64,000 bases of DNA from a virus (Duplodnaviria; Heunggongvirae; Uroviricota; Caudoviricetes). Numbering within the stretch: position 1 is the stretch's first letter; each line of letters opens with the position of its first letter. The DNA lies in the IMG/VR virus record IMGVR_UViG_3300021387_000074; one strand, given 5' to 3'. Of the stretch, positions 21,861 to 45,607 are shown piece by piece. The translations under genes were made by a program, and so were the position numbers. Under the pieces are notes generated by a model. The model was given only the letters and a program-made list of their open reading frames with translations. It made no database searches and was not told the DNA's origin.

Positions 21861-21866
21861 GAGATT

Positions 21867-21936: not shown

Positions 21937-21946
21937 ATAAATTAGT

Positions 21947-27453: not shown

Positions 27454-27483
27454 ACAATTAACTTGTCATTCTGCGTATCAACA

Positions 27484-28077: not shown

Positions 28078-28137
28078 AATTACCCCTTAATCTTCTTGAT
28101 AATACAATTATACTACCAAGAAGAAGATTTGTAAAGA

Positions 28138-28503
28138 TTAGTAATCGCAGTCAAATACTGCTTTAATCTTAGAACTGTGGCAAAGACAGAAAGCGCCGTT
28201 CTCACCATTAGAGATCATCTGACAATCGTAATCATCAATTACAACTTTGTCTCCAATCTTGAATGCTGGGTCTTTTACTTTGTCGCCAATACTCTTAACA
28301 ACAAAATATTTTACGATGAGCTTTCCGCTTTTATTTGGATTGTTTACATTCTGTCCAGTAGCCTTTACTCCTGGCATAATCAAACCACTAGCAGTTTTTT
28401 CTACTTTTGATTCTGCAGGGACAGCTTCGCAAACTACCCATTCACCCATTGCTGTAATGTCTTTAATTGTTTTATCACTCATTGTTTTTTCTCCAATGAG
28501 CAA
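28138..28503 (-). CDS. GroES/Hsp10-like co-chaperonin
   Basis: Mobile-loop-like 'EKTASGLIMPG' and 'FKIGDKVVIDDY' resemble the GroES 'KSAGGIVLTGS' and 'VKVGDIVIF' segments. Confidence 0.45.
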   Translation of the reverse strand: MLIGEKTMSDKTIKDITAMGEWVVCEAVPAESKVEKTASGLIMPGVKATGQNVNNPNKSGKLIVKYFVVKSIGDKVKDPAFKIGDKVVIDDYDCQMISNGENGAFCLCHSSKIKAVFDCDY

Positions 28504-28520
28504 ATTATAACAATAGTATT

Positions 28521-28973
28521 TTAAATGTCAAGTGCTTCAAAGCCATTCTTTACTTCGCTTAAGTTACAGAACGCATTATCGAAGTCTTTTGAAACTGAAT
28601 CAACGATAAGCTGATAATCTGCATTTTCAATAGCGTTATTAAGAGAGTCCTGAACTGTTTCGAATTCGTCTACCACTTCCTTGAGATGTGTTACCATCTT
28701 ATCGACTTTACGAAGTTTGCTATTTGCATCTCCTAAATCGCTTTCGAGATCATCATAATCATTGCAACGACAATAATCATAAGGACAAGAGTTGCAGTCG
28801 ATTTCATCCTGGAGATTACAGTTTTCTACTTTGAGCTCTTTAATCTCTTCTTCAGGAGCAATTTTTGAAGTATTCCAACACTCTTCAAAGAGAGCCTTAT
28901 ATTCGTCGGGAATTTTCTTTTCTGACCTTGCGTTATGAATAGCAAACCACTGTTCAAATGTTGATGGAGCCAT
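28521..28973 (-). CDS. hypothetical protein (Cys-containing, acidic)
   Basis: 150-aa ORF. Confidence 0.45.
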   Translation of the reverse strand: MAPSTFEQWFAIHNARSEKKIPDEYKALFEECWNTSKIAPEEEIKELKVENCNLQDEIDCNSCPYDYCRCNDYDDLESDLGDANSKLRKVDKMVTHLKEVVDEFETVQDSLNNAIENADYQLIVDSVSKDFDNAFCNLSEVKNGFEALDI

Positions 28974-29275
28974 TAGAGCACCTCCCTAAAATCTTTTATA
29001 TACCGATTTTCTGCGGCGTAAATTTCTGTTTTAATTTTTATAGGTTCTTCTTCATTAGGAAACGCAAGAGCTTTTTTTTCTTCTTCACCTAAAATCTTAA
29101 AAACTAAAACCCAAACATTTTTAAATCTTGGGTCTTTAACTACCGCAACTTCAGTAATATGATTTGTATTAAAGCCAACCATGTTTACTTCATTCAGGTC
29201 AAAAGTTTCTGTTTCTTCTTCAAATGAATAAGAAGGTATATCAATAAACATAATTACCCCTGCAAATAATCCCAA
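28973..29275 (-). CDS. hypothetical protein
   Basis: 100-aa ORF. Confidence 0.4.
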   Translation of the reverse strand: MGLFAGVIMFIDIPSYSFEEETETFDLNEVNMVGFNTNHITEVAVVKDPRFKNVWVLVFKILGEEEKKALAFPNEEEPIKIKTEIYAAENRYIKDFREVL

Positions 29276-29490
29276 ATACTCTGACCAAGTTTGTCTTCGT
29301 CGGGAATTTCAATTTTGTCGGAATCAAAATGTTCAATAAGATGCCAAATAGCACTTACTGCGTCATTAAGATCTTCATAATCATTTTTTATTTTTTCAAT
29401 TTCTTTATCAAACTCTCCACGAGTTTCAGAATTGATAAATTCAACTTTAAGGAATTCGCTTTCCCAGCCCCAATCAGAATTACTTGCCAT
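29254..29490 (-). CDS. hypothetical protein
   Basis: 78-aa ORF. Confidence 0.4.
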   Translation of the reverse strand: MASNSDWGWESEFLKVEFINSETRGEFDKEIEKIKNDYEDLNDAVSAIWHLIEHFDSDKIEIPDEDKLGQSIWDYLQG

Positions 29491-29575
29491 TCTGAACCTC
29501 CATAAAAACTAAAATAGCATAAGATTTTCCATCTTACGCTATAATTATATCACGAGGACAAAATTTTGTAAATTA

Positions 29576-30367
29576 TTACAACCCGAAATTTATTTTCTTA
29601 AAATAATTTGGAAGCTCTGGGTCAAAATAAGGGATCTGAATAATTCTTATTTTATAAATTTGTTGATCATGAAGTTTTTTGATTTTATCAAAATGTTCAC
29701 CCTTAACTTCTGCACGAATAAACTCGTTTACTTCGTGATAAGTAAAGCCGAGTTTGTCTTCGTCAGAACTTCCACACATTCCATCAGAAGGTGTCTTATG
29801 GACAAGTTCTTTTGGCAACTCAAGATAATCACCAATAGCAATAACTTCTTCAGTTGTGAGTTTGCTGATTGGAGCAAAGTCGCCAGCAGAATCACCATAG
29901 AATGTAGAGAAGCCTACCATATCTTCAGAAAGATTACAAGTGTTTGCTACGCGGCAGTTGCCGATTGTTGCGGCTACACCATAGAGTGTGACCATTCTTA
30001 AACGAGCTGGGGTATTTGTCTTGTATTGATAAGTAGGGAACTCTTTTCCGTTCTCAGAAACAACGCGCATCTGTTCTGTGAGTCCTGAGTAAGCATTGCA
30101 AATGTTAATGCAATAACTCTTAATTCCAAGATGTTTAATAACAGCATCAGAGTCAGCAATATCTGACTGAACACCGTTAGGCATCTGAACACCGATAACA
30201 CGATCTTTGCCAAGTGCTTCAACGCAGAGTGCGGCTACAACAGATGAATCCTTTCCACCTGAAATACCAATTACCGCTTTTGTATTTTCATCACCGTTCA
30301 AAGAGAACCAGTTACGAATCCAATCAATACAATTCTGTGTGTGTTTAACAACATTAAAACCGCTCAT
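29576..30367 (-). CDS. nadE: NH3-dependent NAD+ synthetase
   Basis: PP-loop 'GISGGKDSS'. 'ARLRMVTLY'. 'GFSTFYGDSAGDFAPISKLTTEEV...HKTPSDGM', typical of NadE. Confidence 0.85.
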   Translation of the reverse strand: MSGFNVVKHTQNCIDWIRNWFSLNGDENTKAVIGISGGKDSSVVAALCVEALGKDRVIGVQMPNGVQSDIADSDAVIKHLGIKSYCINICNAYSGLTEQMRVVSENGKEFPTYQYKTNTPARLRMVTLYGVAATIGNCRVANTCNLSEDMVGFSTFYGDSAGDFAPISKLTTEEVIAIGDYLELPKELVHKTPSDGMCGSSDEDKLGFTYHEVNEFIRAEVKGEHFDKIKKLHDQQIYKIRIIQIPYFDPELPNYFKKINFGL

Positions 30368-30606
30368 TATATTTCCTCCAACTCAAAGTTATAAAGTGAT
30401 TTTCTGATATTACCAACATACCCGCTAAATTCAAATTTGTGTCCATCATCTTCATAAGAGATGTTAAGACCGTTCCAAGGATGCATTTGAATTGTGAGTA
30501 TATCTCCTTCGTTAAGTCTTTCAAAGTTTCCCGAAATCTTTGCTTTCTTTCGTTCAACTACTCTGTACTTCTTTATGAAATTGTCTAAAACCTCATCTCC
30601 ACTCAT
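30367..30606 (-). CDS. hypothetical protein
   Basis: 79-aa ORF. Confidence 0.4.
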   Translation of the reverse strand: MSGDEVLDNFIKKYRVVERKKAKISGNFERLNEGDILTIQMHPWNGLNISYEDDGHKFEFSGYVGNIRKSLYNFELEEI

Positions 30607-31193
30607 TAAATACCTCCGAGGTTTAATAATTTACTTTTGTATTCTGCCCAAGCATGCTTCATCATAATAGAAGTGTCGGAAGAACTCATTATGTTTTCAA
30701 CCTGAGAGTCTGAACGATAGCGTACTTCAATAAATTCATTTTCATCGAGTTTCTGCTGCTGCCTACAAGAGCCTTCTACTTCTATATAATAACAAGTCAT
30801 TTTATTATCCATAAAAGCAGGGTTAGGATTTGATTCATAAAGTTTTCTTATTTGAAGGATTTTATTTTTATCCAGCCCAATCTCTTCTTCGCATTCGCGA
30901 AGAATAGCATCAAGTGGGCTTTCACCTTCTTCAACCATTCCGCAAGGAAATTCTTCCATTACTTTATCTACACCGTGGCGATACTGAGCAGTCATTACAA
31001 ACCTTTCGTTGTAATCTGCGCAAGTTCTTGTAACAATTGCAGATACCCAGTTTGGTGCTTTTATTTTTACATAAGTACCATTCTTTCCATTTGGTGCTTT
31101 TTTATTTTCATTCACAACATCAAAGATTGGTGTGTGCAGCATTGTCTGAGGATCGTTCCAAGATTCAAATTTTAATTTACTATCGTCTGCCAT
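30606..31193 (-). CDS. Nudix hydrolase (candidate ADP-ribose/NAD-related pyrophosphatase)
   Basis: Nudix box 'GMVEEGESPLDAILRECEEEIGL' (GX5EX7REUXEEXGU). Confidence 0.75.
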   Translation of the reverse strand: MADDSKLKFESWNDPQTMLHTPIFDVVNENKKAPNGKNGTYVKIKAPNWVSAIVTRTCADYNERFVMTAQYRHGVDKVMEEFPCGMVEEGESPLDAILRECEEEIGLDKNKILQIRKLYESNPNPAFMDNKMTCYYIEVEGSCRQQQKLDENEFIEVRYRSDSQVENIMSSSDTSIMMKHAWAEYKSKLLNLGGI

Positions 31194-31201
31194 ATTTTCT
31201 C

Positions 31202-31621
31202 CTAAAAATGATCTACATATTGCGGATTTATTTCTCCAAGTCTTTTGTTTATTTCTTTTATAAATTTATCAATAAATTCTTCATCTTCATTTTCGTTTTT
31301 AATGCTAAATGCATAAGGGTTCTCGTCGTTGATAAACCAAACATGGACTTTTATTCTGTCATTTTCTGTTGCGTAGTCGACTTTCACTATTGTTTCTATG
31401 TTTATATAAATTTTAGTGTGATCACCACTTAATCCAAGAAATTGCTTAGTATTCTCATTCTCAAATAAAGCTATAAGTTCATCTCTTGAGATAAAATCAA
31501 AATCGACATAACTTAATTCTTTACTACCTATTGTGGTATAATCGAATTCTTTTTCTTCTATACTTATATAAGCAACATTTTTAATATTTAAGTAAGTGTC
31601 TTCTTTAATTTTTACTAGCAT
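31202..31621 (-). CDS. hypothetical protein
   Basis: 139-aa ORF. Confidence 0.45.
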   Translation of the reverse strand: MLVKIKEDTYLNIKNVAYISIEEKEFDYTTIGSKELSYVDFDFISRDELIALFENENTKQFLGLSGDHTKIYINIETIVKVDYATENDRIKVHVWFINDENPYAFSIKNENEDEEFIDKFIKEINKRLGEINPQYVDHF

Positions 31622-31637
31622 TTCTTACCCCACGCAA

Positions 31638-31695
31638 AAATTATACCATAAAAGCGAAAAAAAGTAAAGCCCACCAAATAGGTGGGCTGTTAAAG
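31638..31695 (-). terminator. conserved terminator-promoter cassette (copy 2)
   Basis: + strand reads 'aaaaattataccataaaagcgaaaaaaagtaaagcccaccaaataggtgggct'. Confidence 0.6.
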
Positions 31696-31706
31696 CAGCT
31701 GCTTAA

Positions 31707-32867
31707 TTAAACAGTTGCTCCATATTTTCTTGCAAATTTAGCACTGTCTCTACTCTTGATTTCAGCACCAATGATTTCCATATCTTCTTCATGGAGGTCG
31801 TCATCAAAGTTTTGTTCTTCTGCAGTTATTTCATCTGCGGTAAGATTATTTGTAAGATAGCTGCTGATTTCAGCATCTTCGTCAATACTGTATCTGAAGT
31901 GCTCAGGTACACCGAGATTCATCAAACGTTCTCTTTCTTCTGACTTCTTACACTTGAGAGAAGCCCATCTACCATCAATCATACAATCTCGCTGACAACA
32001 ATCGTGATAAACGATAGTTTCACTATTCTTAAACTTGATGAAGATGCTTACATTAAAGTTTTCTTCTTCTTCGGCTTCAACATTGAAGTAAGTGATTGCT
32101 TCACTTGGAGTCATATCTGGGAAGTTGTTAAGTTCTTCAACGAATGAAGAAAGAATATCCATAGATACGAACTTCTTACTACCAAGAGTTTTTACAATAT
32201 CTTCTGTGAGTTCTTTTCTTACGAGATTATCAGCGCAGTATGCTCTTACAACATTTGCATTTTCTGAAGTAAATTTGTAGTGATAGCGAATACGTCCTGG
32301 TCTTGATTTCAAGTTTTCATCAAGCTTCCAAACGTTATTTACTGTGAGCAAGAACAAGTTGCCAGCGCAGCCGCTGTTTCCATCCAATACAGAGAGAAGT
32401 GTTTCCTGCTTTGTCTGGTCATCTTCATTATCGCCACCATTGGCATTACCGCCCATAAACTTTTCAAATTCATCCATAAAGATGACACAATCTTTTATGT
32501 TCATAAGGAAGTCAGGCAGTCCTGGCAAAAATTCAGAAACAACAACAATTGGCTTCTTTCCGTTAAGCTGCTCCATTACAAGACGAGCAGTAAGTGTCTT
32601 TCCAAGTCCTTTGTCACCTGACAAAAGAACACCAAGGTTTTTGTCGGCTTTGTTCTTGCCATAAGCTTCTACAATATGGCTTGCAACATTTTGAGAATTT
32701 CCATAAATCTTTCCGTGAGAAAGTTTTACTTCTGTTTCTTCCAAATAACAGCCGATGAATTTGTTAAAACAAACCTTCCAAGTTCCCATCGGGACTTCTT
32801 TTCCAAATGTCAAATCAGATTCTTCTGCGTCAAAGAATCTAACCATGTTTTCAGTTCTTAACCACAT
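31707..32867 (-). CDS. AAA-family ATPase of unknown function
   Basis: Walker A 'GDKGLGKT', Walker B 'VIFMDEFEKF'. Confidence 0.6.
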   Translation of the reverse strand: MWLRTENMVRFFDAEESDLTFGKEVPMGTWKVCFNKFIGCYLEETEVKLSHGKIYGNSQNVASHIVEAYGKNKADKNLGVLLSGDKGLGKTLTARLVMEQLNGKKPIVVVSEFLPGLPDFLMNIKDCVIFMDEFEKFMGGNANGGDNEDDQTKQETLLSVLDGNSGCAGNLFLLTVNNVWKLDENLKSRPGRIRYHYKFTSENANVVRAYCADNLVRKELTEDIVKTLGSKKFVSMDILSSFVEELNNFPDMTPSEAITYFNVEAEEEENFNVSIFIKFKNSETIVYHDCCQRDCMIDGRWASLKCKKSEERERLMNLGVPEHFRYSIDEDAEISSYLTNNLTADEITAEEQNFDDDLHEEDMEIIGAEIKSRDSAKFARKYGATV

Positions 32868-32880
32868 ATCTTTTTACCTC

Positions 32881-32940
32881 ACTACAAAAATTATAACATG
32901 TTTCCATAAAAAAGTAAAGCCCACCAAATTGATGGGCTGT
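32881..32940 (-). terminator. conserved terminator-promoter cassette (copy 3)
   Basis: + strand reads 'aaaaattataacatgtttccataaaaaagtaaagcccaccaaattgatgggct'. Confidence 0.55.
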
Positions 32941-32943
32941 TGA

Positions 32944-33237
32944 TTATTTATTAAAACTTTCTACAAAGACGGGATGCGTTATAATCTGTTCAATTACTGC
33001 ATCTCTATCTTCCTTTTTTGGAAAATAATAAACCTCAAGGCTTGTATCATTACCGTCAAATCTTTCGATACCTAAGCAATAATACTCAGTGCGTTCATCC
33101 ATATAAAAGTTATTATCTTCATCTTCTTTGTAAGAAGACATTTTTACAATGCTTTTGATTGGAATATAATATTCCATATCTCCGAACTTATAACTGTTAT
33201 CTTCATCTTCCAAACAATTAGTTAATTTTATAAACAT
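32944..33237 (-). CDS. hypothetical protein
   Basis: 97-aa ORF. Confidence 0.4.
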   Translation of the reverse strand: MFIKLTNCLEDEDNSYKFGDMEYYIPIKSIVKMSSYKEDEDNNFYMDERTEYYCLGIERFDGNDTSLEVYYFPKKEDRDAVIEQIITHPVFVESFNK

Positions 33238-33238
33238 A

Positions 33239-34480
33239 TTATTTTCCTGACTGAATTCTCCAATTGAGAGTTCTGCGGAGGAAGTCTACAAACTGCTGGC
33301 TGCGGCTCATTGTCTTGCTTGCATCGTCTGAAAGTTTTGCAACATCCAAACCATTTACAAGAACAACTTTTGCTACAATGTTAAGCGGTTTGATTGTCTG
33401 TGGACCACTCCACCAAGTTCCAATACCAAAGGCTGGCTTAGCGCCGAGTTCTTTTGTATACTTACACAAATCACCCCAAAGTTTGAAGCTGTCGATAGAA
33501 TTACTAAACAACAGTGTCTTTGTATGTGGGTCAATCTTGAGAGATTTATAATGTTCTACCCAATTCTTTGCCCATTCAAATGGATCACCTGAGTCGTTTC
33601 TTACTCCACCAAACAAAGTAGCGTAAGTGAGTGTCATATCTCTGCGGCAGAGTTCATCACCGATTGTATCGGTAAGCCAAATGCCGTTCAAGATACCATA
33701 TTCCTTAATCCAAGCATCCATAGCAATCTTGTTAGAGTAAGCAGGGTTATACATAAGGTTACCCTGTCCAACAGATTCAATAAATTCGTGAGCACAAGTT
33801 CCAACTGGTGTGAGACCATACTTCATAGCAAGCAGAACATTTGATGTTCCAATAAAACCTGCAAATCTGCTCTGAGTCTTTTTGCATTCTGCAAAGCGAC
33901 TGATAAGCCAATCCTGTGCTTCAAAAGACAAGCGGCGACGAGCACCAAATTCTGACCAAACACCTGTGTCAAAATCACCATAAATAACTTCATGGATTTT
34001 CTTTTCATTTTCTTCCTTGAAACCTTTCAAGAGTTCATCATAATCGTAGTGATTACGATAATAAACTTCTGCACAAATTTCAAGAACTGGAATTTCGTAA
34101 TAACTTACATATTCCTGGACTCCGCCAAAAGAAATACTCAAGCCACTTTCTGCATCATTTGAGATTGTGAAATCTTCAAATACTGGATGCCAAAAACGCA
34201 AGAAGTTAATGTAATCATTGTGAATCCAAGGACACTTAGTTCTGAGATAATTAAGTTCCTCTTCTGTGAATCTTAAATTACAGTAAGACTTAATCTGTGC
34301 TGTAATTTCCAAAATATCTTCTTTGGTGTAAGGCTCGTGGTCTTTCTCGATACCAACATTTCGGGCGCGGAAATCCCAAGTTGCCTTCATGTTTCCAAAC
34401 TGATGATGATAACACTGACCCATACTGAACTTGTATAAGTCAGTATCTAACAAAGATTTTACAATCGGCTCATATTTCAT
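33239..34480 (-). CDS. pncB: nicotinate phosphoribosyltransferase
   Basis: 'SLLDTDLYKFSM', 'GARRRLSF', 'IGTSNV', 'GTCAHEF', 'RNDSGDP', 'AFGIGT', 'KPLNIVAKVVLVNGLDVAKLSD' all parallel the E. coli PncB blocks. Confidence 0.85.
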   Translation of the reverse strand: MKYEPIVKSLLDTDLYKFSMGQCYHHQFGNMKATWDFRARNVGIEKDHEPYTKEDILEITAQIKSYCNLRFTEEELNYLRTKCPWIHNDYINFLRFWHPVFEDFTISNDAESGLSISFGGVQEYVSYYEIPVLEICAEVYYRNHYDYDELLKGFKEENEKKIHEVIYGDFDTGVWSEFGARRRLSFEAQDWLISRFAECKKTQSRFAGFIGTSNVLLAMKYGLTPVGTCAHEFIESVGQGNLMYNPAYSNKIAMDAWIKEYGILNGIWLTDTIGDELCRRDMTLTYATLFGGVRNDSGDPFEWAKNWVEHYKSLKIDPHTKTLLFSNSIDSFKLWGDLCKYTKELGAKPAFGIGTWWSGPQTIKPLNIVAKVVLVNGLDVAKLSDDASKTMSRSQQFVDFLRRTLNWRIQSGK

Positions 34481-34539
34481 AAAAAAATACTCCTTTGTTT
34501 TGTTTTCTTAATTATAAACCAAAAACGATTTTTTGTAAA

Positions 34540-34860
34540 CTATTCCTCTTTAAAAGAATCAACGTAATGCGGAGCACGCTCTAACCAGCACGCAATAAAA
34601 CTCCAATTATTTGTATTTACAAGTTTGTAATTGCCATCATTACACACTCTTTCAATTACAGTTTCTTTTCCACAAAACTTAAGCATTGAATGCACAAAAG
34701 AATTATGTGCTGTAATTACATTACCAAATTCATCAGTGTCTTCACAACTTCCAACTATCTCTTCTTCTTCATTATCTACTTTTTCTATTTGATGACAAGG
34801 TAGTTTTTTAATTTCTTCAAATGGTTTTATAACCACTTCATCTCCAACTTTAAATTTCAT
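34540..34860 (-). CDS. member of tandem paralog family (MKFKVGDxV N-terminus)
   Basis: N-terminus 'MKFKVGDEVVIKPFEEIKK' is shared with five downstream ORFs. Confidence 0.5.
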   Translation of the reverse strand: MKFKVGDEVVIKPFEEIKKLPCHQIEKVDNEEEEIVGSCEDTDEFGNVITAHNSFVHSMLKFCGKETVIERVCNDGNYKLVNTNNWSFIACWLERAPHYVDSFKEE

Positions 34861-34913
34861 AAAATCCCTACTTGTTACTTAGTATTATGCATAGTGGACA
34901 TCTGTGTCGTGAC

Positions 34914-35504
34914 TCACGACAAATTTGTCCACTCGGTGCGTTCTTTATTTATACATATATCTCGAATCTGCTCTACAAGAGCATTCCACATTTGAGATTT
35001 ATAACTTTCATCTGTGAACTTTGTTAAAGTATTAAATGAATGATTGAACATAGAGCAATCCATATCAAATTTGTCTAAATCTTTGTAAGTAAAATTATAG
35101 TCGTGTGTGGCTACGTCTACTAAACGAGCATATACAAATTTATAAGGGAAATGTCTAGTATGGATACAGATAGGACTTACTGTATCATTCTTAAAATTAA
35201 ATGGAACTTTCCAACAATAATTAGCGGCATAAATTATATTTTCTTTTTTGAAAAGATCGAGAATGTTTATTAAGTCTTTTGGGTCAGGCGGATCTTTCCT
35301 ATATTCCTCGGCAAACTTATGATATTCAGCGAGCAAATCGTTATAGTCTCTTACAAAGTTAGAAGAATCCTTATTCCAAACTTCACGATTGAATAAATAT
35401 GTTCTTGAACCATAATTCAAATCAAGATCATTTGCCATAAATAAATCATAATCAGTCGCAATCGTTTCAAACTGATTAAGTTTGTCTTGAGGATAATAAA
35501 TCAT
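34914..35504 (-). CDS. hypothetical protein
   Basis: 196-aa ORF. Confidence 0.45.
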   Translation of the reverse strand: MIYYPQDKLNQFETIATDYDLFMANDLDLNYGSRTYLFNREVWNKDSSNFVRDYNDLLAEYHKFAEEYRKDPPDPKDLINILDLFKKENIIYAANYCWKVPFNFKNDTVSPICIHTRHFPYKFVYARLVDVATHDYNFTYKDLDKFDMDCSMFNHSFNTLTKFTDESYKSQMWNALVEQIRDICINKERTEWTNLS

Positions 35505-35537
35505 AAAAGCCCCCGTGTAATAGGTTCACCACCGCAA

Positions 35538-35771
35538 TTAAGCAGACGTTATAAATATAAGTAAAAGTTTAATAAGGCTAAAAGCCGTGCCAAATCCTAA
35601 AATGGCAGTTGTCCAAAACTTTGCCATAAAGCGTAAGAAATCATTACTGATTTTATCATCCAAGATAGATAACCAGGAATCACATTTTTCATAATTATGG
35701 TAAAGATAGCCAAGCACCGATACAAAACAAAGCAATAAAAATAAATACAACATCCACATTATTTCCAACAA
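35538..35771 (-). CDS. small membrane protein
   Basis: Two hydrophobic helices. Confidence 0.35.
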   Translation of the reverse strand: MLEIMWMLYLFLLLCFVSVLGYLYHNYEKCDSWLSILDDKISNDFLRFMAKFWTTAILGFGTAFSLIKLLLIFITSA

Positions 35772-36019
35772 CTCCTAATTACTTCTACCAAAACTACAAG
35801 TAGTTTCCAACACAGCCAAAGGCATCCAGCGTATAAAGGAATTTCCCACCAGTGCATAAGCCCTCCTATGCCATTTGAATGACTGTAATTTTATAATCTT
35901 TTGGAAGATTACCATTAGCTGCAGAAGTTGACCTTAAATACATCATAAATGCTTCATTTGTATTATGGGCGTTTATGATTGTCGATGGAGATTCCTTTCC
36001 ATCTATTCTACAACTTACT

Positions 36020-36457
36020 TTATAAACGTTCAGCTTTTCCATTTTCATAACCTCTATTATAAACTTCTCTAAACATTTCTTCAAGTCTAGGGAGAAGTTC
36101 ATTAAATATTTCACCGACTGTATCGGGCTTGCCACTGAAGTCTGCAACATAACCTTTTTCCTCAGCATTCTCAACTTTCTCAAGCCAACTTTCAATGAAT
36201 TGGTAGTTGCTTATCGCACTTACCCCTCCTAAATAATAATGTCCTTTGTTTTCGTCATAATCTTCTATTACGCATTCTTCACCGCAAAATTCAAACATTT
36301 CTGTGATAAAATATATACCATCAGTTATATCTCTACAAAATTCTGGATCATAATATGTATATTTAGTAAGATAATCACCATCACAGTCCCTGGTAGAAAT
36401 AGCTGCAATTTCTTTAAGAGATTTGATACGAACTTTATCGCCAACCTTGAATTTCAT
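36020..36457 (-). CDS. paralog family member (MKFKVGDKVRIKSLKEI ... SDFSG)
   Basis: Shares N-terminal and C-terminal blocks with 36828..37232, 37582..38151 and 38968..39414. Confidence 0.55.
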   Translation of the reverse strand: MKFKVGDKVRIKSLKEIAAISTRDCDGDYLTKYTYYDPEFCRDITDGIYFITEMFEFCGEECVIEDYDENKGHYYLGGVSAISNYQFIESWLEKVENAEEKGYVADFSGKPDTVGEIFNELLPRLEEMFREVYNRGYENGKAERL

Positions 36458-36847
36458 TTAAGCCTCTGTCATAAAACCGTAATCTACGTTATAAATATCT
36501 GCTTCAAGTTTTGTAAGTTTCCATTCAGAAACTACACCAAATTTCATAAGAAGTTCAACGTGATCTTTAAGCATAGAAGAACAGCCTTTTCCAAACTCCT
36601 TGAGTTCATCAAAATGAACTTCAATAAATCCTTTACCGAAGAAGTTTGAAACTGCATTGTTATACACAGCAACTTCATCTGCGTTATCATATTCGCCCAT
36701 CATAAAGCAATCACAAAGACGAGCGGCATTTTCAATCAAAGCTTTATAACTATCGGCGTATCTGTCAGGAAATTCAAGTTTGTAAGTGCCATCATCGCAA
36801 GTTCCGACTTCATCATCTTCAAAATAACTACGAATTATTTTTTCCAT
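36458..36847 (-). CDS. hypothetical protein
   Basis: 129-aa ORF interposed in the paralog array. Confidence 0.45.
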   Translation of the reverse strand: MEKIIRSYFEDDEVGTCDDGTYKLEFPDRYADSYKALIENAARLCDCFMMGEYDNADEVAVYNNAVSNFFGKGFIEVHFDELKEFGKGCSSMLKDHVELLMKFGVVSEWKLTKLEADIYNVDYGFMTEA

Positions 36848-37232
36848 CTTCTACTCCTTTGTTATAAGCATTAATTACTATTTCTTTGATTTGCGGCATG
36901 ATTTGTTCCCAATATATTTCAGCAGGTGTCATTTCTTCAATGGTTCCGCCAAAATCTGATACATACGCAACTGACGTTGGTTTGTCTTTATTAAACCAAC
37001 AAAGACACCAATTCCAGTGATCATCTTCTTCTATGGTATAAACGTCGTACCCTTTGCATTCTTTAATTGTTACTAGTTTATCGCAATACTTATACATTTC
37101 GGGTATAAAATCATATCCAAGAACTCGGAATATATATCGTTTAGCGCCGCTTTCTGCTACCGAGTTTTCAGCAATCTCTTCTATTTCTTTAAGCGACTTA
37201 ACCCAAACTTTGTCGCCAGGTTTAAGACTCAT
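36828..37232 (-). CDS. paralog family member (MSLKPGDKVWVKSLKEIEEI ... SDFGG)
   Basis: Conserved family blocks. Confidence 0.55.
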   Translation of the reverse strand: MSLKPGDKVWVKSLKEIEEIAENSVAESGAKRYIFRVLGYDFIPEMYKYCDKLVTIKECKGYDVYTIEEDDHWNWCLCWFNKDKPTSVAYVSDFGGTIEEMTPAEIYWEQIMPQIKEIVINAYNKGVEDGKNNS

Positions 37233-37589
37233 TTACGCCTCCCTTTCGTCAGGTGTTCCACTAAAGTCTGACACAAACTCTTGCTCTGGACTTAACCATT
37301 TTTCATTCCAAACATAATTTTGAATTTCTCTAGTATCTTCATATCTATGTTCAGTCATTTTACTTGCAATGTTAAGTCGATATGATGGTTCTTCCTCGTC
37401 AACAATATAAGCCACAAAGAAAGTTTTTCCGCAAAAAGGTGGCATGTAACCTTTATTAAAGATAGTATGAGAATAATCAAATTTAATATAGTCTTCTGAA
37501 ATAGAAGTATGATATGTACCGCTATTTAAGATCTCTTCAAACGATTTAATAGTTACTTTATCGCCAACCTTGAATTTCATCTTACTCAC
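37233..37589 (-). CDS. paralog family member, C-terminally shorter
   Basis: 'MSKMKFKVGDKVTIKSFEEIL...FVSDFSGTPDEREA' lacks the C-terminal helical block found in siblings. Confidence 0.5.
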   Translation of the reverse strand: MSKMKFKVGDKVTIKSFEEILNSGTYHTSISEDYIKFDYSHTIFNKGYMPPFCGKTFFVAYIVDEEEPSYRLNIASKMTEHRYEDTREIQNYVWNEKWLSPEQEFVSDFSGTPDEREA

Positions 37590-38151
37590 CTCGGCTTTTC
37601 ATTTCTTCATTATAAGCATTTACCACAACTTCCTTTAGCTGTGGTAAAATACTATAAAAAAACTTTTCTGCATCTGATAGATTTTCTTCTGAACCACCAA
37701 AATCTGAAACAAACATTGGTTCTTCTTCATCTTCAAACTGTTCGGAAGATGCTGCTGGGTCTACATTTGTCAGCCAGCCACCATACCAATAAAATTGTTC
37801 GGAATCTTCGCGAATGCGAAAAACGTATTCACCGCCATCAGTCTTTTCTTCAATTTTGGTAGGCGTTACTTTCTTGCCGCAAAACTTCATCATATCTTCA
37901 AGAAAAGTATAATGGCAATCACCATCAAAAGAAAAAGTTTTATCTTCTATGTGCTTTGCCATATCAGCCAAAACTGCATATGGCTTAACCCAAATCTTTT
38001 CATCGTCGAACTTAACCTTAGTGGCAGTAATATCAGTCTTTTTCTTCCGCATTGAAATCGTCCTTGTTGATAATAGTAGGAATAAAACTTCCATACATCC
38101 AAGTTCCAGGTACTGGAACAAAGCACTGATCTTGAACACGCTTTTCACCAA
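37582..38151 (-). CDS. divergent paralog family member
   Basis: C-terminal 'FVSDFGGSEENLSDAEKFFYSILPQLKEVVVNAYNEE' matches the family C-block. Confidence 0.5.
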   Translation of the reverse strand: MVKSVFKISALFQYLELGCMEVLFLLLSTRTISMRKKKTDITATKVKFDDEKIWVKPYAVLADMAKHIEDKTFSFDGDCHYTFLEDMMKFCGKKVTPTKIEEKTDGGEYVFRIREDSEQFYWYGGWLTNVDPAASSEQFEDEEEPMFVSDFGGSEENLSDAEKFFYSILPQLKEVVVNAYNEEMKSRGE

Positions 38152-38971
38152 CTGTTAAAGCATAATCAAGATTTGCATCAACATAATCAGCAAAACCGTG
38201 AACTGGGTCGTTCTTACCAAGTTTCTTAAAGAAAGCAGCTGCATCACCAAGACAAGTTCTTTTAACTAACGTATGATAGCCACCATTAGTTTTGATAATA
38301 AAGTAATTGCCTTTACCGAAAGCCTTTTCGTGAAGGTCTCGCAAAATCTTTTCTGCGAACTCTCTGTTTTCTTTTTCTTTATATGTTTCATTCAAATCAA
38401 AATCATAATGAATGAATACTTTTTCTGTGCTTTGTGCATAAATAGATTTTGATTTCTTTGCAATACCAGCCATTTTTTCAAGCTGTCCTTTGATACCATT
38501 AGTGTTACCAAAGTTTATTGTTCTTTCACAGGCTTCAACTGTCTGAGAAACAATTTCGTGTGCATACTTAATAAGTTCGTTTGCAACTTTTACTTCATCA
38601 GAAGGTTCGGCATAAATCATAACTGCCAAACTTTTATCAGGATAAGCGTAGCCATTCTTTGTAATCATACCACGTTTAGGACATTCATATTTGTAGATAT
38701 GTGTAAGGAATTCTTCAAAAGACCAAATGCGATCTTTGCCACGAGGAGAAATAATCTCTTCTCGCATCATAACACCATCAGAACCTGAAATACCAAAAGT
38801 TTCTCTTTCTTCTTTGTTAAGTTTCTTTGGTCTTGTAGCGATACACATAAGATAAGATTTTCTTATGTTTTCTTTTGACAAATCTCTTAATACATTTTCA
38901 AAGAACCAAGCCAACTCTGATGGGTCGGCAACAAATTTATAATTACCTTCAAGTGATTCTGATTTAGTCAT
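38033..38971 (-). CDS. hypothetical protein (312 aa)
   Basis: Long ORF. No motif recognised. Confidence 0.5.
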   Translation of the reverse strand: MTKSESLEGNYKFVADPSELAWFFENVLRDLSKENIRKSYLMCIATRPKKLNKEERETFGISGSDGVMMREEIISPRGKDRIWSFEEFLTHIYKYECPKRGMITKNGYAYPDKSLAVMIYAEPSDEVKVANELIKYAHEIVSQTVEACERTINFGNTNGIKGQLEKMAGIAKKSKSIYAQSTEKVFIHYDFDLNETYKEKENREFAEKILRDLHEKAFGKGNYFIIKTNGGYHTLVKRTCLGDAAAFFKKLGKNDPVHGFADYVDANLDYALTVGEKRVQDQCFVPVPGTWMYGSFIPTIINKDDFNAEEKD

Positions 38972-39414
38972 TTTTTTATCCCCCTATATTCCTTTATAGC
39001 ATGTATTAAATCGTAAAATATACATTCATTTCTACTGCATTCTGAGCATTCTGTATCCAAGCAAGTTTTTGCATCTCCTTCTAAGGCAAGAATCTTATTT
39101 ATAAAAACTCTTTCTCGCGGAGCATCTGTGAAAGAAGAAACGTAGCAATGCTCCTCACTAGTTTCTACTAGTTCTAACCATCTCTCTATAAAGTTCCATT
39201 CTCTTGAGTCGCCAACAAATCTGTAACTACCATTGTCACAAACTTCTTTTATTACATATTCCTTTCCGCAAAAAGAATACATGCTGGAAGCAAAGCGCAT
39301 TTCACTATATGTACCATTGTCGCAATAATACTCAGCATTATCGAAATCATTTAAAGTTTCTCTTATTTCTTCAGCTGATTTTACACGAACTTTATCACCA
39401 ACCTTAAAATTCAC
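38968..39414 (-). CDS. paralog family member (MNFKVGDKVRVKSAEEIRE)
   Basis: N-terminal family block, plus a Cys-rich C-terminus. Confidence 0.55.
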   Translation of the reverse strand: MNFKVGDKVRVKSAEEIRETLNDFDNAEYYCDNGTYSEMRFASSMYSFCGKEYVIKEVCDNGSYRFVGDSREWNFIERWLELVETSEEHCYVSSFTDAPRERVFINKILALEGDAKTCLDTECSECSRNECIFYDLIHAIKEYRGIKK

Positions 39415-39420
39415 CTTTTG

Positions 39421-39485
39421 CCTCCGTATGCTAAAATTATACCATAAAAGTGAAAAAAAGTAAAGCCCACCGATTTGGTGGGCTT
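39421..39485 (-). terminator. conserved terminator-promoter cassette (copy 4)
   Basis: + strand reads 'ctaaaattataccataaaagtgaaaaaaagtaaagcccaccgatttggtgggctt'. Confidence 0.6.
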
Positions 39486-39503
39486 ATTTAATAGGAGGTA
39501 ATT

Positions 39504-40334
39504 CTAAATATGACAATCAACCAACGTGATATAATAATCAGGGTGGTCTTTGACGTACTGTATAAACCAATCTTCATACTTACGCTGGTCTTCGGAGCTT
39601 TCAGAAGAGCTGAACCAATGCATTTCGCCTGGTGCAACCCATTCACCGTCAGGTGTTACCACCGCGTAAGGACAAGTGCGTGTAGAACGTAAGATATAAT
39701 CATCTCTTGATTCATAACGATCTGTATAATATTCTTTTTTATAAAAAGAAAATCCAAAATGATTTTCCTTTTCTTCTTCAGTTTGCTCAGCACCTTCAAC
39801 AACGATATCCCAAAAACGTGCTGCGGCGTCGAGTTCTTCTTTGGTTCCTTCCCATTGAATTTCATCGAGCTTTGCAGAGTTTACTGTTTTTGTAGGATCT
39901 TCTTTGAGTTTGAAATATCCATCCCAACGACCGCCAATAGTATACCAGTCCCATTTTGATTTTGGGTTATAAGTTGAGAGTTCATTACCATTCTCATCAT
40001 AACGGTCATCATCGTCGCCATCACGATACCACTGATAAATCTCTTCATCAGTTTTTTCATACAATTCCAAACGTTCTTTGACGTAATCAGTTAATTCATC
40101 ACTGTCTTCTTTAAGCCAATAAGTACGATATTTCTCAGTGTCGTAAGTTCCATTGGCGTAAGCTTCCATATCTTTCTTTAAACTCTCAACGCTTTCGCGG
40201 AAGCTTTTGATAATTTCTTCCTTTGTTTGGTAGATATATGGCTCTACTTCAATGTTTTCGTCAAACGGAGCGAGGAGTTCATCAATAGCAGATTCACCAC
40301 CTTCTTTTGTAATTACAGCAACTGTATAATGCAT
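39504..40334 (-). CDS. hypothetical acidic protein
   Basis: 276-aa ORF. Confidence 0.5.
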   Translation of the reverse strand: MHYTVAVITKEGGESAIDELLAPFDENIEVEPYIYQTKEEIIKSFRESVESLKKDMEAYANGTYDTEKYRTYWLKEDSDELTDYVKERLELYEKTDEEIYQWYRDGDDDDRYDENGNELSTYNPKSKWDWYTIGGRWDGYFKLKEDPTKTVNSAKLDEIQWEGTKEELDAAARFWDIVVEGAEQTEEEKENHFGFSFYKKEYYTDRYESRDDYILRSTRTCPYAVVTPDGEWVAPGEMHWFSSSESSEDQRKYEDWFIQYVKDHPDYYITLVDCHI

Positions 40335-41850: not shown

Positions 41851-41910
41851 CTATAAAAATTATACCACAAGTCTATAAAAAAGTAAAGCCCACCAATTTG
41901 GTGGGCTTAT
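41851..41910 (-). terminator. conserved terminator-promoter cassette (copy 5)
   Basis: + strand reads 'ctataaaaattataccacaagtctataaaaaagtaaagcccaccaatttggtgggctt'. Confidence 0.6.
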
Positions 41911-42371
41911 AAGTTTCGCAAATTACTAAGGCGAGCTCTCGCTATATTACCTGCTTGCCTGGATGCGGCTCTGTTCGAGAGTTAATCCTAAGTCAGTACG
42001 TTTATTCCCAACTTGTATAATTCGTTCCCGAATGTATTAAGAACCTTGCTCCACCATTTTCCATAATCTGTTGATCTTATAACTGCTTTTCACTTGGCTG
42101 TGATTCACGCAGAAAGCAATCAAGCGTTTTTTACTTTTCCATATTGTAATACATATAAATCAGGTGCTTACTTTTCTAAAAGAGTAAAAGAACTTTTAGT
42201 TAGTTTAAGCAATTTCCCCATTCAGAGTGGTTGCCACACCAACAACAAACACTAACTTCTCTGAATAATCTCCATCAGTATTTGTTTCTCCTATGGTTTT
42301 TCCTTTAGTCATCTTCTTCTCTCATGGAGAAGCTTTCTACCTTAATGGAACGCCCAAAAAGGCTGACAAGT

Positions 42372-42452
42372 CGGCTCGGAGGGATTTGAACCCTCAATCC
42401 TTTCGGCGTCTGGGCTTAAACCAGATGTGAATTCCAGTTCCACCACGAGCCG
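42372..42452 (-). tRNA. tRNA-Leu (UAA), type II
   Basis: 81 nt. Acceptor CGGCTCG/CGAGCCG. Anticodon arm TCTGG-UUUAAGC-CCAGA. T-arm GAGGG-TTCAAAT-CCCTC. Confidence 0.6.
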
Positions 42453-42459
42453 AAATAGT

Positions 42460-42500
42460 CGGTCGGCAGGGATTCGAACCCCACTTTCTTCTTTATTCTC
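42460..42500 (-). ncRNA. tRNA 3'-half/minihelix-like element
   Basis: GGGG-TTCGAAT-CCCTG T-arm plus acceptor strand. The nearest 5' complement is about 150 nt away, across a hairpin-rich spacer. Confidence 0.3.
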
Positions 42501-42698
42501 ATGAATACTTTTGATTGAACTTTAAGGAAGTTCATAGCATCCCTTAATTCTTTACCTATCCTTTTCACTACCTTCAGAACTCCATACACTAAGCACTATG
42601 AATGCATCATGTCGACCGTTAAAATTGGGCGAGGTGTATAACCAAGTCCCGTGTGTTTACCAATTTCACCACACCCCTCACGGATTGCTATCCTTTAG

Positions 42699-42750
42699 AG
42701 AGATGGCAGGGCTCGAACCTGCAGTGTCGGGATTTTACCATTTGCTTTAA
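42699..42750 (-). ncRNA. tRNA 3'-half-like element enclosed by the bipartite box motif
   Basis: GCAGG-TTCGAGC-CCTGC T-arm. Only about 28 nt lie 5' of it before the TGTTCCTAT motif. Confidence 0.3.
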
Positions 42751-42780
42751 AAAATAGGAACACCCTTTGCCTAAAATAGT

Positions 42781-42830
42781 AGGAATGGAGGGAGTCGAAC
42801 CCCCATTTGCAAAATTGCTTTTGCGGAGCT
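42781..42830 (-). ncRNA. tRNA 3'-half-like element
   Basis: GGGGG-TTCGACT-CCCTC T-arm. No 5' acceptor partner within 100 nt. Confidence 0.3.
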
Positions 42831-42968
42831 GAACCTTCGGTAATTTACGTTATAACTTTCAGATTCAGTGAGTGTCTTGCATCACTCTTCATACTCTCAC
42901 GACATACAGCTGATACTTCGCTACCCTTTGAGCCTTTGGCTTTCCAACGCTGCCAACATTCCCATTTA

Positions 42969-43049
42969 GGAGAGGTGGGAGTTGAACCCACATCCACCAA
43001 TTACAAGCATTATACTGGACGGTTTATAAGACCGCGCTGATACTCTCCT
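42969..43049 (-). tRNA. noncanonical tRNA-like gene (possible anticodon loop CUUAUAA)
   Basis: Perfect acceptor AGGAGAG/CTCTCCT and T-arm GTGGG-TTCAACT-CCCAC. The D-arm and anticodon-arm spacing is not canonical. Confidence 0.4.
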
Positions 43050-43073
43050 ATATTTGCCCTTTCGGGCAAATCG

Positions 43074-45005
43074 TTAAGCAAACAACTTAATCAAATCATC
43101 TTTCGATGGGTTTGACAAGTCGATAAGCTCAATGTCATCTTCTGTCAACGGAATCATTTTGGTTTCGTCGTCAGGATCTGGAACCATTAAAGGTTCGTAG
43201 ATGACGTTAGCCCCTGCTTTCTCTAAGAGAGGCTTCAAGTCCACATAGGACTCAACTTTATTCCTCATCTGCTGCTGAATAATATCAGCGGCTGTACTTG
43301 TGGAAACTCTCTGTGCTCCTGCGGCAAGGTCAGCAAGAACAATCTTGTTGTTTGTTACAACACCAATCTTCTTCAAGCCACCGTCCTTAAACTCGAGCTC
43401 TGTTTCAAACACGATGTCGTTAGGATCTACCATATAGGCTTTACCACTTGAGCTCCAACCATGATGGTTGCAGAACTTAGACTTATCAATATCCTCGTTA
43501 GCAACGAGAATCTTGAATTTACACTTACCATTACCACTGTAAACGTTTACACCGATGTTTCCATCAACAGCTTCCTTGCCCACATAGAACAATTCAGTTG
43601 CTTCTGGGTCGGCATTTGTCATATCACCTGAGAAAACAAGTGTATGATTTTCGTCGTAGTAATCAGAACACCAACCATAGCGGTTGCCATTCTTATCAGT
43701 GTACCACAAGTCGAGGTCTCTCGCTCCCCATTCGTTTCTCCAATAGATGCCAAATATGTTATGGTCACCCTTCATAGGAACGTAAGAACCGAATGGTAAG
43801 TTACCAATAAAGTTTTTCTCTGAGGTAGGGCAAGAGAGTTCAACACCCTTTGGCAACATTACATTGTAGCCACTTACCTTTCCAGCCAAAGACTTAACAA
43901 CAGATTCTTCAATAAGATTGTACAACTTTACGAGGTAATCTGTATTGCAAGTTGCGATGTAATCATCACGAACAAACATTTTACCATTTCTGATAATGAA
44001 CATTTTACCTTCGCGGTCTTTACCGAGCAGACGTTCCTTGATTGACTGCATCAGCTGAATCTTACGATAGTTGTTAAGATTTTCTACTTCTTTTGACGCC
44101 TTGTACAAAGAAAGTTTTTCATTTCCCTGAGCTGCAGGTGTCAAACAAGTTTCCCAAAATCCCTTTACCAATGGCTTATGGTAAGCATCGGCATATTTAC
44201 GGATTTTGTTTACTGCCTTGTTGTTGGCAGCAGTTCCCTTCATAGCAAGGAAGATTGGCTTGTATCTGTGGAAGATTCTTGAAAGGATCTTCAACTGATT
44301 GTCTTTCAGAGTAGAGAGGTCGAAACTTCCCCTCTGATTGTACTGAAAACCGTTCTTTCCCTTGATTGTATAAAGGGTGTTCGCATCCTTAATGAGAGTA
44401 GCGGCACCTGTGTAGCGATAAACGATACAACGAAGCATTCCGAACTCATCTCTTGGAAGAATTCCAAGTTTCTCAGAAAGGATAGCCTGGGCTTCTTTAT
44501 TGCTGACTTCATCAAGATTCACATCTTTAATGAACCCATACTCAGTGAAGTATTCAACAATAACATCAATGGTTTCAGGCTTGAGTGCGATGCCACTTTT
44601 AAGCATTCCCATACATTTGTCAAAGATTTCCTTTGGTTCAGCGGGAGTGATAACTTTGAAATGGTCGTAAGGAATTACGACTGGTTCATCGTTTGGAACA
44701 TAACCATTTCCAAGAGCGAAGTCTGTTCCATAAGTTGTGGCGTAATGGAGGATCTGATCGACAAGCAACTCGAAACGATTCTTTGTTGTGATGTCGCTCC
44801 ATTCTTTATAAAATGTTGAGTTCGGATTGAAAGACTGCTCCTTCAACCAAGCAACAACATCTTTTGTGCAGCATTCAGGATGGATAATATACCCATACTT
44901 CATTGACTGCTCATTTACTTTAGCAAAGTTCTTTTCAGCACCTGGTTCTCTTAAAGCCAAGTGAAACATCGAAATAAGTTTAGTATTCATAACGATTTCC
45001 CCCAA
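43074..45005 (-). CDS. large hypothetical protein (643 aa)
   Basis: Long uninterrupted ORF flanked on both sides by tRNA/ncRNA clusters. No motif recognised by eye. Confidence 0.55.
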   Translation of the reverse strand: MGEIVMNTKLISMFHLALREPGAEKNFAKVNEQSMKYGYIIHPECCTKDVVAWLKEQSFNPNSTFYKEWSDITTKNRFELLVDQILHYATTYGTDFALGNGYVPNDEPVVIPYDHFKVITPAEPKEIFDKCMGMLKSGIALKPETIDVIVEYFTEYGFIKDVNLDEVSNKEAQAILSEKLGILPRDEFGMLRCIVYRYTGAATLIKDANTLYTIKGKNGFQYNQRGSFDLSTLKDNQLKILSRIFHRYKPIFLAMKGTAANNKAVNKIRKYADAYHKPLVKGFWETCLTPAAQGNEKLSLYKASKEVENLNNYRKIQLMQSIKERLLGKDREGKMFIIRNGKMFVRDDYIATCNTDYLVKLYNLIEESVVKSLAGKVSGYNVMLPKGVELSCPTSEKNFIGNLPFGSYVPMKGDHNIFGIYWRNEWGARDLDLWYTDKNGNRYGWCSDYYDENHTLVFSGDMTNADPEATELFYVGKEAVDGNIGVNVYSGNGKCKFKILVANEDIDKSKFCNHHGWSSSGKAYMVDPNDIVFETELEFKDGGLKKIGVVTNNKIVLADLAAGAQRVSTSTAADIIQQQMRNKVESYVDLKPLLEKAGANVIYEPLMVPDPDDETKMIPLTEDDIELIDLSNPSKDDLIKLFA

Positions 45006-45073
45006 TTATGAAAAAAGGCGAGGTGTATAATTCTTCATAAACGCTGAAATAAATAGGAACACCTTGTGCCATT

Positions 45074-45102
45074 TAATAATCTAATTATAACACGAAAATA
45101 AA
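45074..45102 (-). promoter_or_regulatory. consensus sigma70-type promoter with extended -10
   Basis: The minus strand reads cTTGACAaatttttattttcgTGtTATAAT, with a 17-nt spacer. Confidence 0.6.
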
Positions 45103-45108
45103 AATTTG

Positions 45109-45507
45109 TCAAGCAACTGAGTAACTAAGTTCCCAATCGCAAGGATCCCAGCCATAGTTGGCATCAACATATTCTCGCAATCTTGTGTCGTATTCATTGA
45201 TTGCCAGATCGAGATTTTTGGCAACGAAAGAATCTCGGCATCTTATACTGAGATTGTCTCGCATCCAATTATGCTGGTAATTATTAAAATTACCACCATT
45301 AAGAGTAATAACGACAACACAGAAATCTTTAATAATGAACTTAGTTGTGTAACTAAAGCATTCACTACTATCGTGATAATACCAAACCTTAGTAGTTATA
45401 TTGATTTCGACATCACCATTGAGAGTTTTAGTAGCAGCACTTTCAAAGCTCTCTACTTCTTTGTATGCAAGCAAAGACATACAACTTCTAAGTTCATCTA
45501 ACTTCAT
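45109..45507 (-). CDS. hypothetical protein
   Basis: 132-aa ORF. Confidence 0.45.
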   Translation of the reverse strand: MKLDELRSCMSLLAYKEVESFESAATKTLNGDVEINITTKVWYYHDSSECFSYTTKFIIKDFCVVVITLNGGNFNNYQHNWMRDNLSIRCRDSFVAKNLDLAINEYDTRLREYVDANYGWDPCDWELSYSVA

Positions 45508-45535
45508 TGTGAAGCCCCCAAAGATAAAATTTTAT

Positions 45536-45607
45536 TTCGCTTATTGGACTCGAACCAATGACCTGCGGATTAATCGTCCGCCGCTCTGCCACCTGAGCTA
45601 AAGCGAT
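45536..45607 (-). tRNA. tRNA-like gene with A1·A72 mismatch and anticodon loop CGAUUAA
   Basis: D-arm GCTC-AGGTGGCA-GAGC. Anticodon stem GCGGA/TCCGC. T-arm ATTGG-TTCGAGT-CCAAT. The anticodon-loop register is unusual (G at position 33). Confidence 0.45.

Follow-up and report, generated by a model that had tools for sequence, protein, structure and literature searches.

What does a phage gain from six small, related and strongly diverged genes kept at one place in its genome, and on what might their products act? The question is raised by a locus in the Caudoviricetes record IMGVR_UViG_3300021387_000074, from which a stretch of 64,000 nucleotides (nt), hereafter the window, was analysed. An earlier reading of the bare sequence, referred to here as the original prediction, had proposed a tandem array of six paralogs between positions 34540 and 39414. 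All six open reading frames (ORFs), which we call p1 to p6 in order of rising coordinates, are present on the minus strand at the coordinates that it gave. The array is not strictly tandem, however, since five unrelated genes encoding 312, 129, 58, 77 and 196 amino acids (aa) are interleaved. We found that a family member consists of an SH3-like barrel, an acidic, disordered linker with a short motif at its end and, optionally, a 30-residue amphipathic helix. The family is thus best described as a clade-specific variant of a widespread phage SH3_15-like domain, comprising barrel and docking motif with or without the helix.

That the six ORFs are true paralogs, with a likeness far above chance, could be confirmed. 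When each paralog was compared by single-pass phmmer with the 675 ORFs from all six frames of the window, its top five non-self matches were the other five members, with E-values from 3e-15 to 0.47, where p4 and p5 formed the weakest pair. A family hidden Markov model (HMM) as well as jackhmmer retrieved exactly these six, the next ORF following at E = 0.45, and no further member was found by either method among all ORFs of the window. Pairwise identity between the paralogs amounts to 25-40%, while their orthologues in metagenomes, to which 63 of the 120 metagenome matches listed belong in the case of p1, share approximately 50-95% identity with their respective paralog. The paralogs are therefore old. 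Conserved positions span the whole barrel (M..FCGK, Y.L, W.F..WL) and the later motif, with D7, K12, M46, C50, W79 and F94 being invariant in 61 sequences, i.e. the six paralogs and 55 metagenomic homologues. The likeness is consequently not restricted to a low-complexity start region, an outcome that would have spoken against the original prediction.

The six members, all read from the minus strand and all preceded by Shine-Dalgarno-like sequences, differ in length and in what follows the barrel. In p1 (34540-34860, 106 aa) the hairpin of the barrel is long and acidic, and YVDSFKEE, the motif (nt 34546-34566), lies at the extreme C-terminus. Barrel, motif and C-terminal helix make up both p2 (36020-36457, 145 aa; motif YVADFSG, nt 36131-36151) and p3 (36828-37232, 134 aa; motif YVSDFGG, nt 36945-36965), the latter with its barrel at residues 1-82 (nt 36987-37232) and its helix at residues 103-133 (nt 36834-36926). 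p4 (37233-37580, 115 aa from an ATG, or 118 aa from an alternative GTG at 37589) has an insertion in the barrel and ends after its motif FVSDFSG (nt 37257-37277). p5 (37582-38052, 156 aa) begins with a basic extension and has a diverged barrel; its acidic linker is long and leads to the motif FVSDFGG (nt 37693-37713), and its helix ends in NAYN. Its start is the ATG of MRKKK at 38052, as picked by gene callers in the near-identical metagenomic contig L001 (233.6 kb, 98.7% identical to the window over 16.9 kb); an alternative TTG start would yield 189 aa and a 119-nt overlap with the upstream gene. p6 (38968-39414, 148 aa), which starts at a GTG behind a GGAGG Shine-Dalgarno site, has a barrel and, as its motif, YVSSFTD (nt 39124-39144), with a Cys-rich insert preceding the C-terminal helix. 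This insert between motif and helix, CLDTECSECSRNEC in the window (39040-39085, minus strand), follows the pattern C-x4-C-x2-C-x4-C and could be a small zinc-binding knuckle; all four Cys residues are kept in the p6-type proteins of L014, L003 and L004 as well.

The blocks by which the original prediction had recognised the family need some adjustment. The N-terminal block is generally present in all six, but p5 fits it weakly (KVKFDDEKIWVKPY). Of the C-terminal block ascribed to four members, the SDF(S/G)G part indeed occurs in p2 to p5, whereas NAYN is found only in p3 and p5, p2 ending in EVYN instead. The helix is present in p2, p3, p5 and also p6, where it follows the Cys-rich insert (C-terminal HMM, E = 1e-9). 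The member at 37233, p4, does lack the helix, but it is not alone in being C-terminally short, since p1 lacks it too.

For the fold, we relied on the AlphaFold2 model of p3 (m128c9a7ba77e, built from a 61-sequence alignment), which reached a mean predicted local distance difference test score (pLDDT) of 85; all fold searches were based on it because the p1 model was of moderate confidence only (pLDDT 71). Residues 1-82 form a beta-rich barrel with pLDDT >90, residues 83-100 are disordered, with pLDDT <50 around YVSDFGG, and residues 103-133 form a single long helix (pLDDT ~79-92). Hairpin and loops of the barrel differ strongly among members. The MKFKVGDKVxVKS block constitutes the first strand and a helix in the p3 model and is common to the whole superfamily, with M1, G6 and V9 nearly invariant in 140 diverse sequences; as modelled, it is therefore a structural element and not a low-complexity start. 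In Foldseek searches the top geometric matches were 4xi6, 4xi7 and 4tse (probability 0.6-0.87, E-values not significant), and the top matches in BFVD, a collection of predicted viral structures, include phage proteins annotated as Mind bomb SH3 repeat domain. By structure, the barrel is closest to the REP repeats of Mib1. The earlier guess of a small beta-barrel of KOW/SH3-like type is hence supported by the p3 barrel, by the Foldseek and BFVD matches and by a link to SH3_15 through homologues.

This link is an indirect one. Pfam and NCBIfam scans of the six proteins returned nothing significant, nor did the family profile against PDB sequences. An exhaustive profile search, however, yielded 1681 cluster representatives at E <= 1e-3, many of which are single barrels of 85-100 aa or proteins with 2-15 repeats. 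Among the best 140 of these 1681 relatives, 42 match SH3_15 (PF18346) with a best E-value of 1.7e-13, and relatives such as P0133 (32.1 bits) and P0180 (25.9 bits) score above its cut-off. Since intermediate homologues match SH3_15, the barrel belongs, as far as sequence relationships tell, to the SH3-like domains of Mind bomb-repeat type, of which it is a divergent example. SH3_15 domains serve as substrate-recognition modules of the Mib1 E3 ligase (PMC11701565). In Mib1 they are arranged as tandem repeats within a RING/ankyrin E3 ligase, whereas each gene of the phage family encodes one barrel and no other Pfam domain, and the SH3_15 model comprises neither the acidic-aromatic motif nor the C-terminal helix, both of which the family adds. 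A similar picture emerged for phrog_7488, a PHROGs family for which no function is given. The N-terminal barrels of p1 (E = 1.9e-5), p2 (9e-5), p3 (9.7e-5) and p6 (1.1e-4) resemble it, with p5 (0.0068) and p4 (0.053) scoring lower, but only the first ~50-77 of its 144 profile positions are matched, and the module of motif and helix lies outside the match. The portion after the barrel is specific to this phage clade.

Within this portion, the motif is the most constant element. Of 161 family proteins, 160 carry the pattern [YF]-[VIF]-x-x-F, with the consensus Y-V-[ES]-[DSF]-F-[DGS]-[GE]-[ET], behind the acidic linker, and in 66 of the 161 (the p1 type) it lies no more than 4 residues from the C-terminus. 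The sole exception is a deletion form in L005 (IMGVR_UViG_3300032030_000136), where the p3-type gene at 7449-7601 is an intact ORF of 51 aa, in which the first 17 residues are fused straight to the C-terminal helix, barrel and motif having been removed in frame. The acidic C-terminal tails of E. coli SSB and T7 gp2.5, which end in an aromatic residue, act as common docking handles on flexible linkers. These tails are likewise short acidic-aromatic motifs, often at the very C-terminus; the sequences differ (DDDIPF in SSB/gp2.5, YVxDF[DG][GE] in the family), as does the remainder of the protein, the family lacking an OB fold. Among the other proteins of the window, the motif recurs once, as YVNSFDEAE near the C-terminus of a 284-aa ORF (12742-13596, minus strand), which may be coincidental since, by our estimate, the loose pattern is expected ~1.6 times by chance.

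How the family evolves was assessed by comparing the locus in eight distinct related metagenomic phage genomes. In all eight, the family occupies the same place, with a gene for a 640-aa protein and a kinase region on one side and a NAPRTase gene on the other. The number of members is 4, 5, 5, 6, 6, 6 or 7, with one locus being incomplete, and they are drawn from at least 11 subtypes. Compared to the window, the flanking genes of L014 are 88-98% identical, whereas the positions of p1, p6 and p5 reach only 38%, 52% and 54%, respectively. Even in the closely related L001, p1 (91.5%) and p6 (90.5%) are mismatch hotspots and the least conserved of 19 genes compared, while most neighbouring proteins are 96-100% identical, g97 showing 92.8%.

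The ratio of non-synonymous to synonymous substitution rates (dN/dS), whose calculation the original prediction had suggested, was determined pairwise and region-wise by the Nei-Gojobori method within orthologous groups, comparisons of paralog versus paralog being saturated. Values ranged from 0.09 to 0.90 over all groups and regions. With every estimate below 1, neither positive selection nor an arms race could be demonstrated. Constraint is strongest over the first 18 residues and over the motif with the tail (mostly 0.1-0.35) and weakest in the hairpin with the second half of the barrel (0.33-0.90); p1 compared to L001 gave 0.86. Neighbouring enzymes show values of 0.05-0.25, the family members therefore evolving faster. 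The description of the family as rapidly diversifying accordingly stands in terms of gene content, with 4-7 copies, replacement of subtypes and a faster pace than the neighbouring enzymes, but not in terms of selection, all dN/dS values lying below 1 and the paralogs being old. Because dN/dS stays below 1 and gene content varies on a conserved backbone, the family appears, from these sequence comparisons, to diversify mainly because cassettes are gained, lost and replaced and loops are relaxed, rather than by demonstrable positive selection.

Directly upstream of p6 (39436-39485, minus strand), a terminator hairpin (AAGCCCACC-loop-GGTGGGCTT followed by a T-run) overlaps an extended −10 promoter (TTTACT-17-TGGTATAAT), and it is likely at this cassette that the transcription unit containing the array begins. 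It recurs at ~41859-41905 (minus strand). The element TGGTATAAT occurs 11 times in the window compared to 0.49 expected, 9 of the copies being on the coding (minus) strand, at 3961, 11531, 16943, 25868, 31648, 39444, 41867, 50125 and 54013, and such cassettes probably mark the transcription units of this phage. Downstream of the array, the next copy on the same strand is the one at 31648, and no strong terminators were found between it and the promoter at 39444, array included; a weaker consensus promoter lies just past p1 (34511-34539). Given the cassette upstream of p6, the position of the next promoter element and the lack of a strong terminator in between, the array probably forms a single transcription unit, which may also include the downstream genes for nicotinamide adenine dinucleotide (NAD) salvage described below. 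The strong Shine-Dalgarno sites and the over-represented extended −10 element suggest a host of Gram-positive type.

Which function would unite these features? Our leading reading, which we hold tentatively, is that the family forms a set of adaptors or inhibitors which bind proteins inside the cell, differ in their targets but share one docking handle, and whose repertoire is adjusted by cassettes. The barrels would be protein- or peptide-recognition modules, each with a different target, the shared motif would be a common handle docking every member on one conserved host or phage partner, and the C-terminal helix could serve dimerisation or partner binding. The genes would be co-transcribed from the host-type extended −10 promoter with the downstream NAD-salvage genes, and the proteins would probably act inside the infected cell, modulating or inhibiting host proteins in host takeover or counter-defence. 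To tune the repertoire, cassettes would be gained, lost or replaced, as opposed to an arms race of point mutations. Protein binding is preferred over nucleic-acid binding because all 41 family proteins compared are acidic, with isoelectric points (pI) of 4.2-5.4, pI being a proxy for surface charge. Host takeover or counter-defence, as the original prediction had already put forward, is the most plausible setting for the family, and it is reasonable to regard the array genes as candidates for host-manipulation or counter-defence factors.

A precedent is provided by Nip of Bacillus phage phi3T, in which SH3-like domains are joined to a dimerisation domain and which inhibits a defence that degrades NAD by binding the SpbK NADase (PMC11984713). 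Like the family members, Nip is a small phage protein with SH3-like domains and a C-terminal element, which in Nip mediates dimerisation; Nip acts on an NAD-degrading defence and the array adjoins NAD-salvage genes. Nip differs in possessing two barrels and an HU-like dimerisation domain and in being encoded by a single gene, compared to one barrel each in a multigene family. By analogy, adjacency and precedent are no more than suggestive of an NAD-linked counter-defence. A more specific version of the adaptor reading would be a modular counter-defence toolkit, in which the barrels are decoys or inhibitors of different immune proteins, e.g. NAD-depleting effectors, YVxDF tethers all of them to one hub (a host protease, chaperone, polymerase, or a phage protein) and the cassettes are swappable. 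We consider this version unlikely; if true, the phage could change its anti-defence repertoire simply by exchanging cassettes that plug into the same hub.

Several points weigh against the adaptor reading and its link to defence. Homology to Nip (phi3T_120), the one SH3-like counter-defence protein compared, was rejected, hhalign giving a probability of 0.6% and E = 0.093 over 26 tail columns only, and a PADLOC scan of the six proteins returned no match. The connection to the NAD-salvage genes is one of adjacency, i.e. guilt by association, and an early timing of the array is drawn solely from the promoter consensus. A direct search with SH3_15 matched only p6, at 12.9 bits (E = 0.14) compared to a gathering cut-off of 24 bits. 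The dN/dS values given above do not demonstrate an arms race. The partners of barrel, motif and helix are putative, we infer the role from sequence and model, and the motif could also be a structural element of an oligomer, which would be invisible to monomer prediction.

Large phages hold many multigene families of unassigned role, and among them the present one is unusually easy to dissect, offering a confident fold, a near-invariant motif and a clear turnover at a fixed locus beside NAD-salvage genes. Should all members share a partner bound via the motif, with their barrels recognising different host proteins, the array would represent a compact, modular way of host manipulation and a source of new protein binders. 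It would furthermore give the prokaryotic and phage domains of Mind bomb SH3 type a functional context, of which they have none at present.

The nearest competing explanation is that the proteins are KOW/Tudor-like nucleic-acid-binding regulators, comparable to NusG/Spt5-like factors or OapB-like RNA binders, acting on phage transcripts or nearby phage RNAs. The structural similarity of the barrels and the RNA-rich genome context are in line with this explanation. The KOW domains of ribosomal protein L24 and NusG/Spt5 are basic, however, whereas all family members are acidic and lack a known link to ribosome or RNA polymerase. None of the six paralogs matches KOW (PF00467), and only one of the best 140 relatives does so weakly (E = 0.0023). 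Moreover, the best links by structure and sequence lead to the peptide-binding Mib repeat, and an acidic-aromatic motif is typical of protein docking. We therefore regard nucleic-acid binding as unlikely.

A further alternative involves the interleaved gene for the 312-aa protein, g312 (38033-38971, minus strand). The family members could be interchangeable adaptor subunits of g312, with the motif docking on it and the barrels bringing different substrates. Each of the eight related genomes has the gene either within the array or right upstream of it, and the identity of its product is 92-98% in seven of these genomes (73% in L004), compared to 54-73% for g643 (~70%) and the AAA_33-kinase proteins in the same comparisons; an invariant docking motif would indeed be expected to have an invariant partner. 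The g312 protein contains the invariant residues H188-x-D190-F-D192 and G230-G231-x-H233 but matched nothing in Pfam, NCBIfam or PDB, even with a profile, and a nucleotidyl-transferase or primase-polymerase-like fold is our guess. Distant homologues (44-47% identity) are encoded on two other large phage contigs with no family member within 8 kb. It follows that g312 works without the family, which weakens the case for g312 as its obligatory partner and makes this explanation rather improbable.

Equally improbable is that the proteins are virion-associated or packaged, either as small barrels of decoration or neck type or as injected cargo with the motif as packaging signal. No recognisable structural genes lie near the array, where neighbours are metabolic or unassigned, the promoter is host-type, and 4-7 copies are unusual for structural components, so that this explanation does not fit the context and constraint pattern well. 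Least probable of all, and fitting no better, is the view that the genes are for the most part dispensable copies which drift under weak selection and share no specific mechanism. The high turnover, the 51-aa in-frame deletion form and dN/dS values of 0.8-0.9, reached in some segments as well as in the closest comparison of p1, are outweighed by intact ORFs with Shine-Dalgarno sites for all members in the eight genomes, six invariant positions over 61 sequences, the near-universal motif and a dN/dS below 1 in every group, ~0.1-0.35 in motif and tail. Even if the proteins were dispensable, the locus would remain a clean case of accessory-gene flux between conserved anchors in rumen jumbo phages.

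The array genes are tightly packed or overlapping. Besides g312, the interleaved genes are g129 (36458-36847), g58 (35868-36044), g77 (35538-35771) and g196 (34914-35504), all on the minus strand, unrelated to the family and without match to the family HMM. g77, kept in L001, L014 and L003, encodes 77 aa with two hydrophobic helices, and its product is probably a small membrane protein. A C-terminal module shared by g196 was considered and dropped, as a weak match of the full profile was not reproduced by an HMM of the C-terminal part only (E = 1.8). Likewise, remnants of the family at the N-termini of g312 (GNYKF) and g129 (DGTYKL) found no HMM support. At the nucleotide level, p1 (DGNYKL, 34620-34640) and g129 (DGTYKL, 36775-36795) match in 20 of 21 nt, and p2 and p4 agree fully over their first ~26 nt, synonymous sites included (36431-36459 and 37554-37582); no such match occurred in 400 shuffles in either case. 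Short gene-conversion patches or a constraint at the nucleotide level are possible explanations for both.

Directly downstream of the array lies a complete-looking set of genes for NAD salvage (~26800-34480), which is kept in related contigs and may counter NAD-depleting defences. It comprises, all on the minus strand, NAPRTase (33239-34480), a NUDIX protein (30606-31193), NAD synthase (29576-30367), a nucleotidyl-transferase of NMNAT type (27484-28077) and an enzyme of isochorismatase/nicotinamidase type (~26821-27475). All long ORFs of the window lie on one strand. It also encodes an RNA ligase, AAA+ ATPases and a protein with a GGDEF diguanylate-cyclase domain (9996-11009, minus strand; Pfam E = 7.9e-23).

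The window belongs to a large rumen phage of roughly 230 kb; SRR873610, one of the samples in which the locus occurs, was taken from the rumen of sheep (PMC4158751). The phage clade is absent from the annotated phage collection, since a megablast search with 34000-40000 and tblastn searches with p2 and p6 found no match there, p1 gave a marginal one only (Enterococcus phage SAP6, E = 0.4) and a 760-aa protein of the window likewise remained without match. Scanning IMG/VR returned nothing with p3 and one locus, L005, with the p1 alignment. The genome_contigs scan returned nothing, and the metagenome scan was dominated by the generic MKFKVGD pattern, with only short, distant loci returned. One assembly, L012 (GCA_019973165.1, JAIFIH010000696.1), is identical to L011, a phage locus, as far as the AAA+ gene and continues past 11278 with genes for a TonB-dependent receptor and SusD of Bacteroidota type. 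Because the phage uses strong Shine-Dalgarno sites, L012 probably represents an assembly chimera; if it does not, it would hint at the host.

The RNA genes of the window include a ROOL RNA among tRNA genes (46612-47180, minus strand; Rfam RF03087, 270 bits, model positions 1-574 of 574) and a transfer-messenger RNA (22264-22595, minus strand; Rfam 101.5 bits), for which ARAGORN gives the tag peptide DEDFEDSYAMVA. Around 30 tRNA genes are found at 16569-22595 (minus strand) and scattered over 42370-48913 and 61600-61670. Two of them were assigned odd anticodon loops by ARAGORN, one of 4 bases at 48363-48434 and one of 2 bases at 61600-61670, the latter being confirmed as a tRNA by Rfam (59.5 bits).

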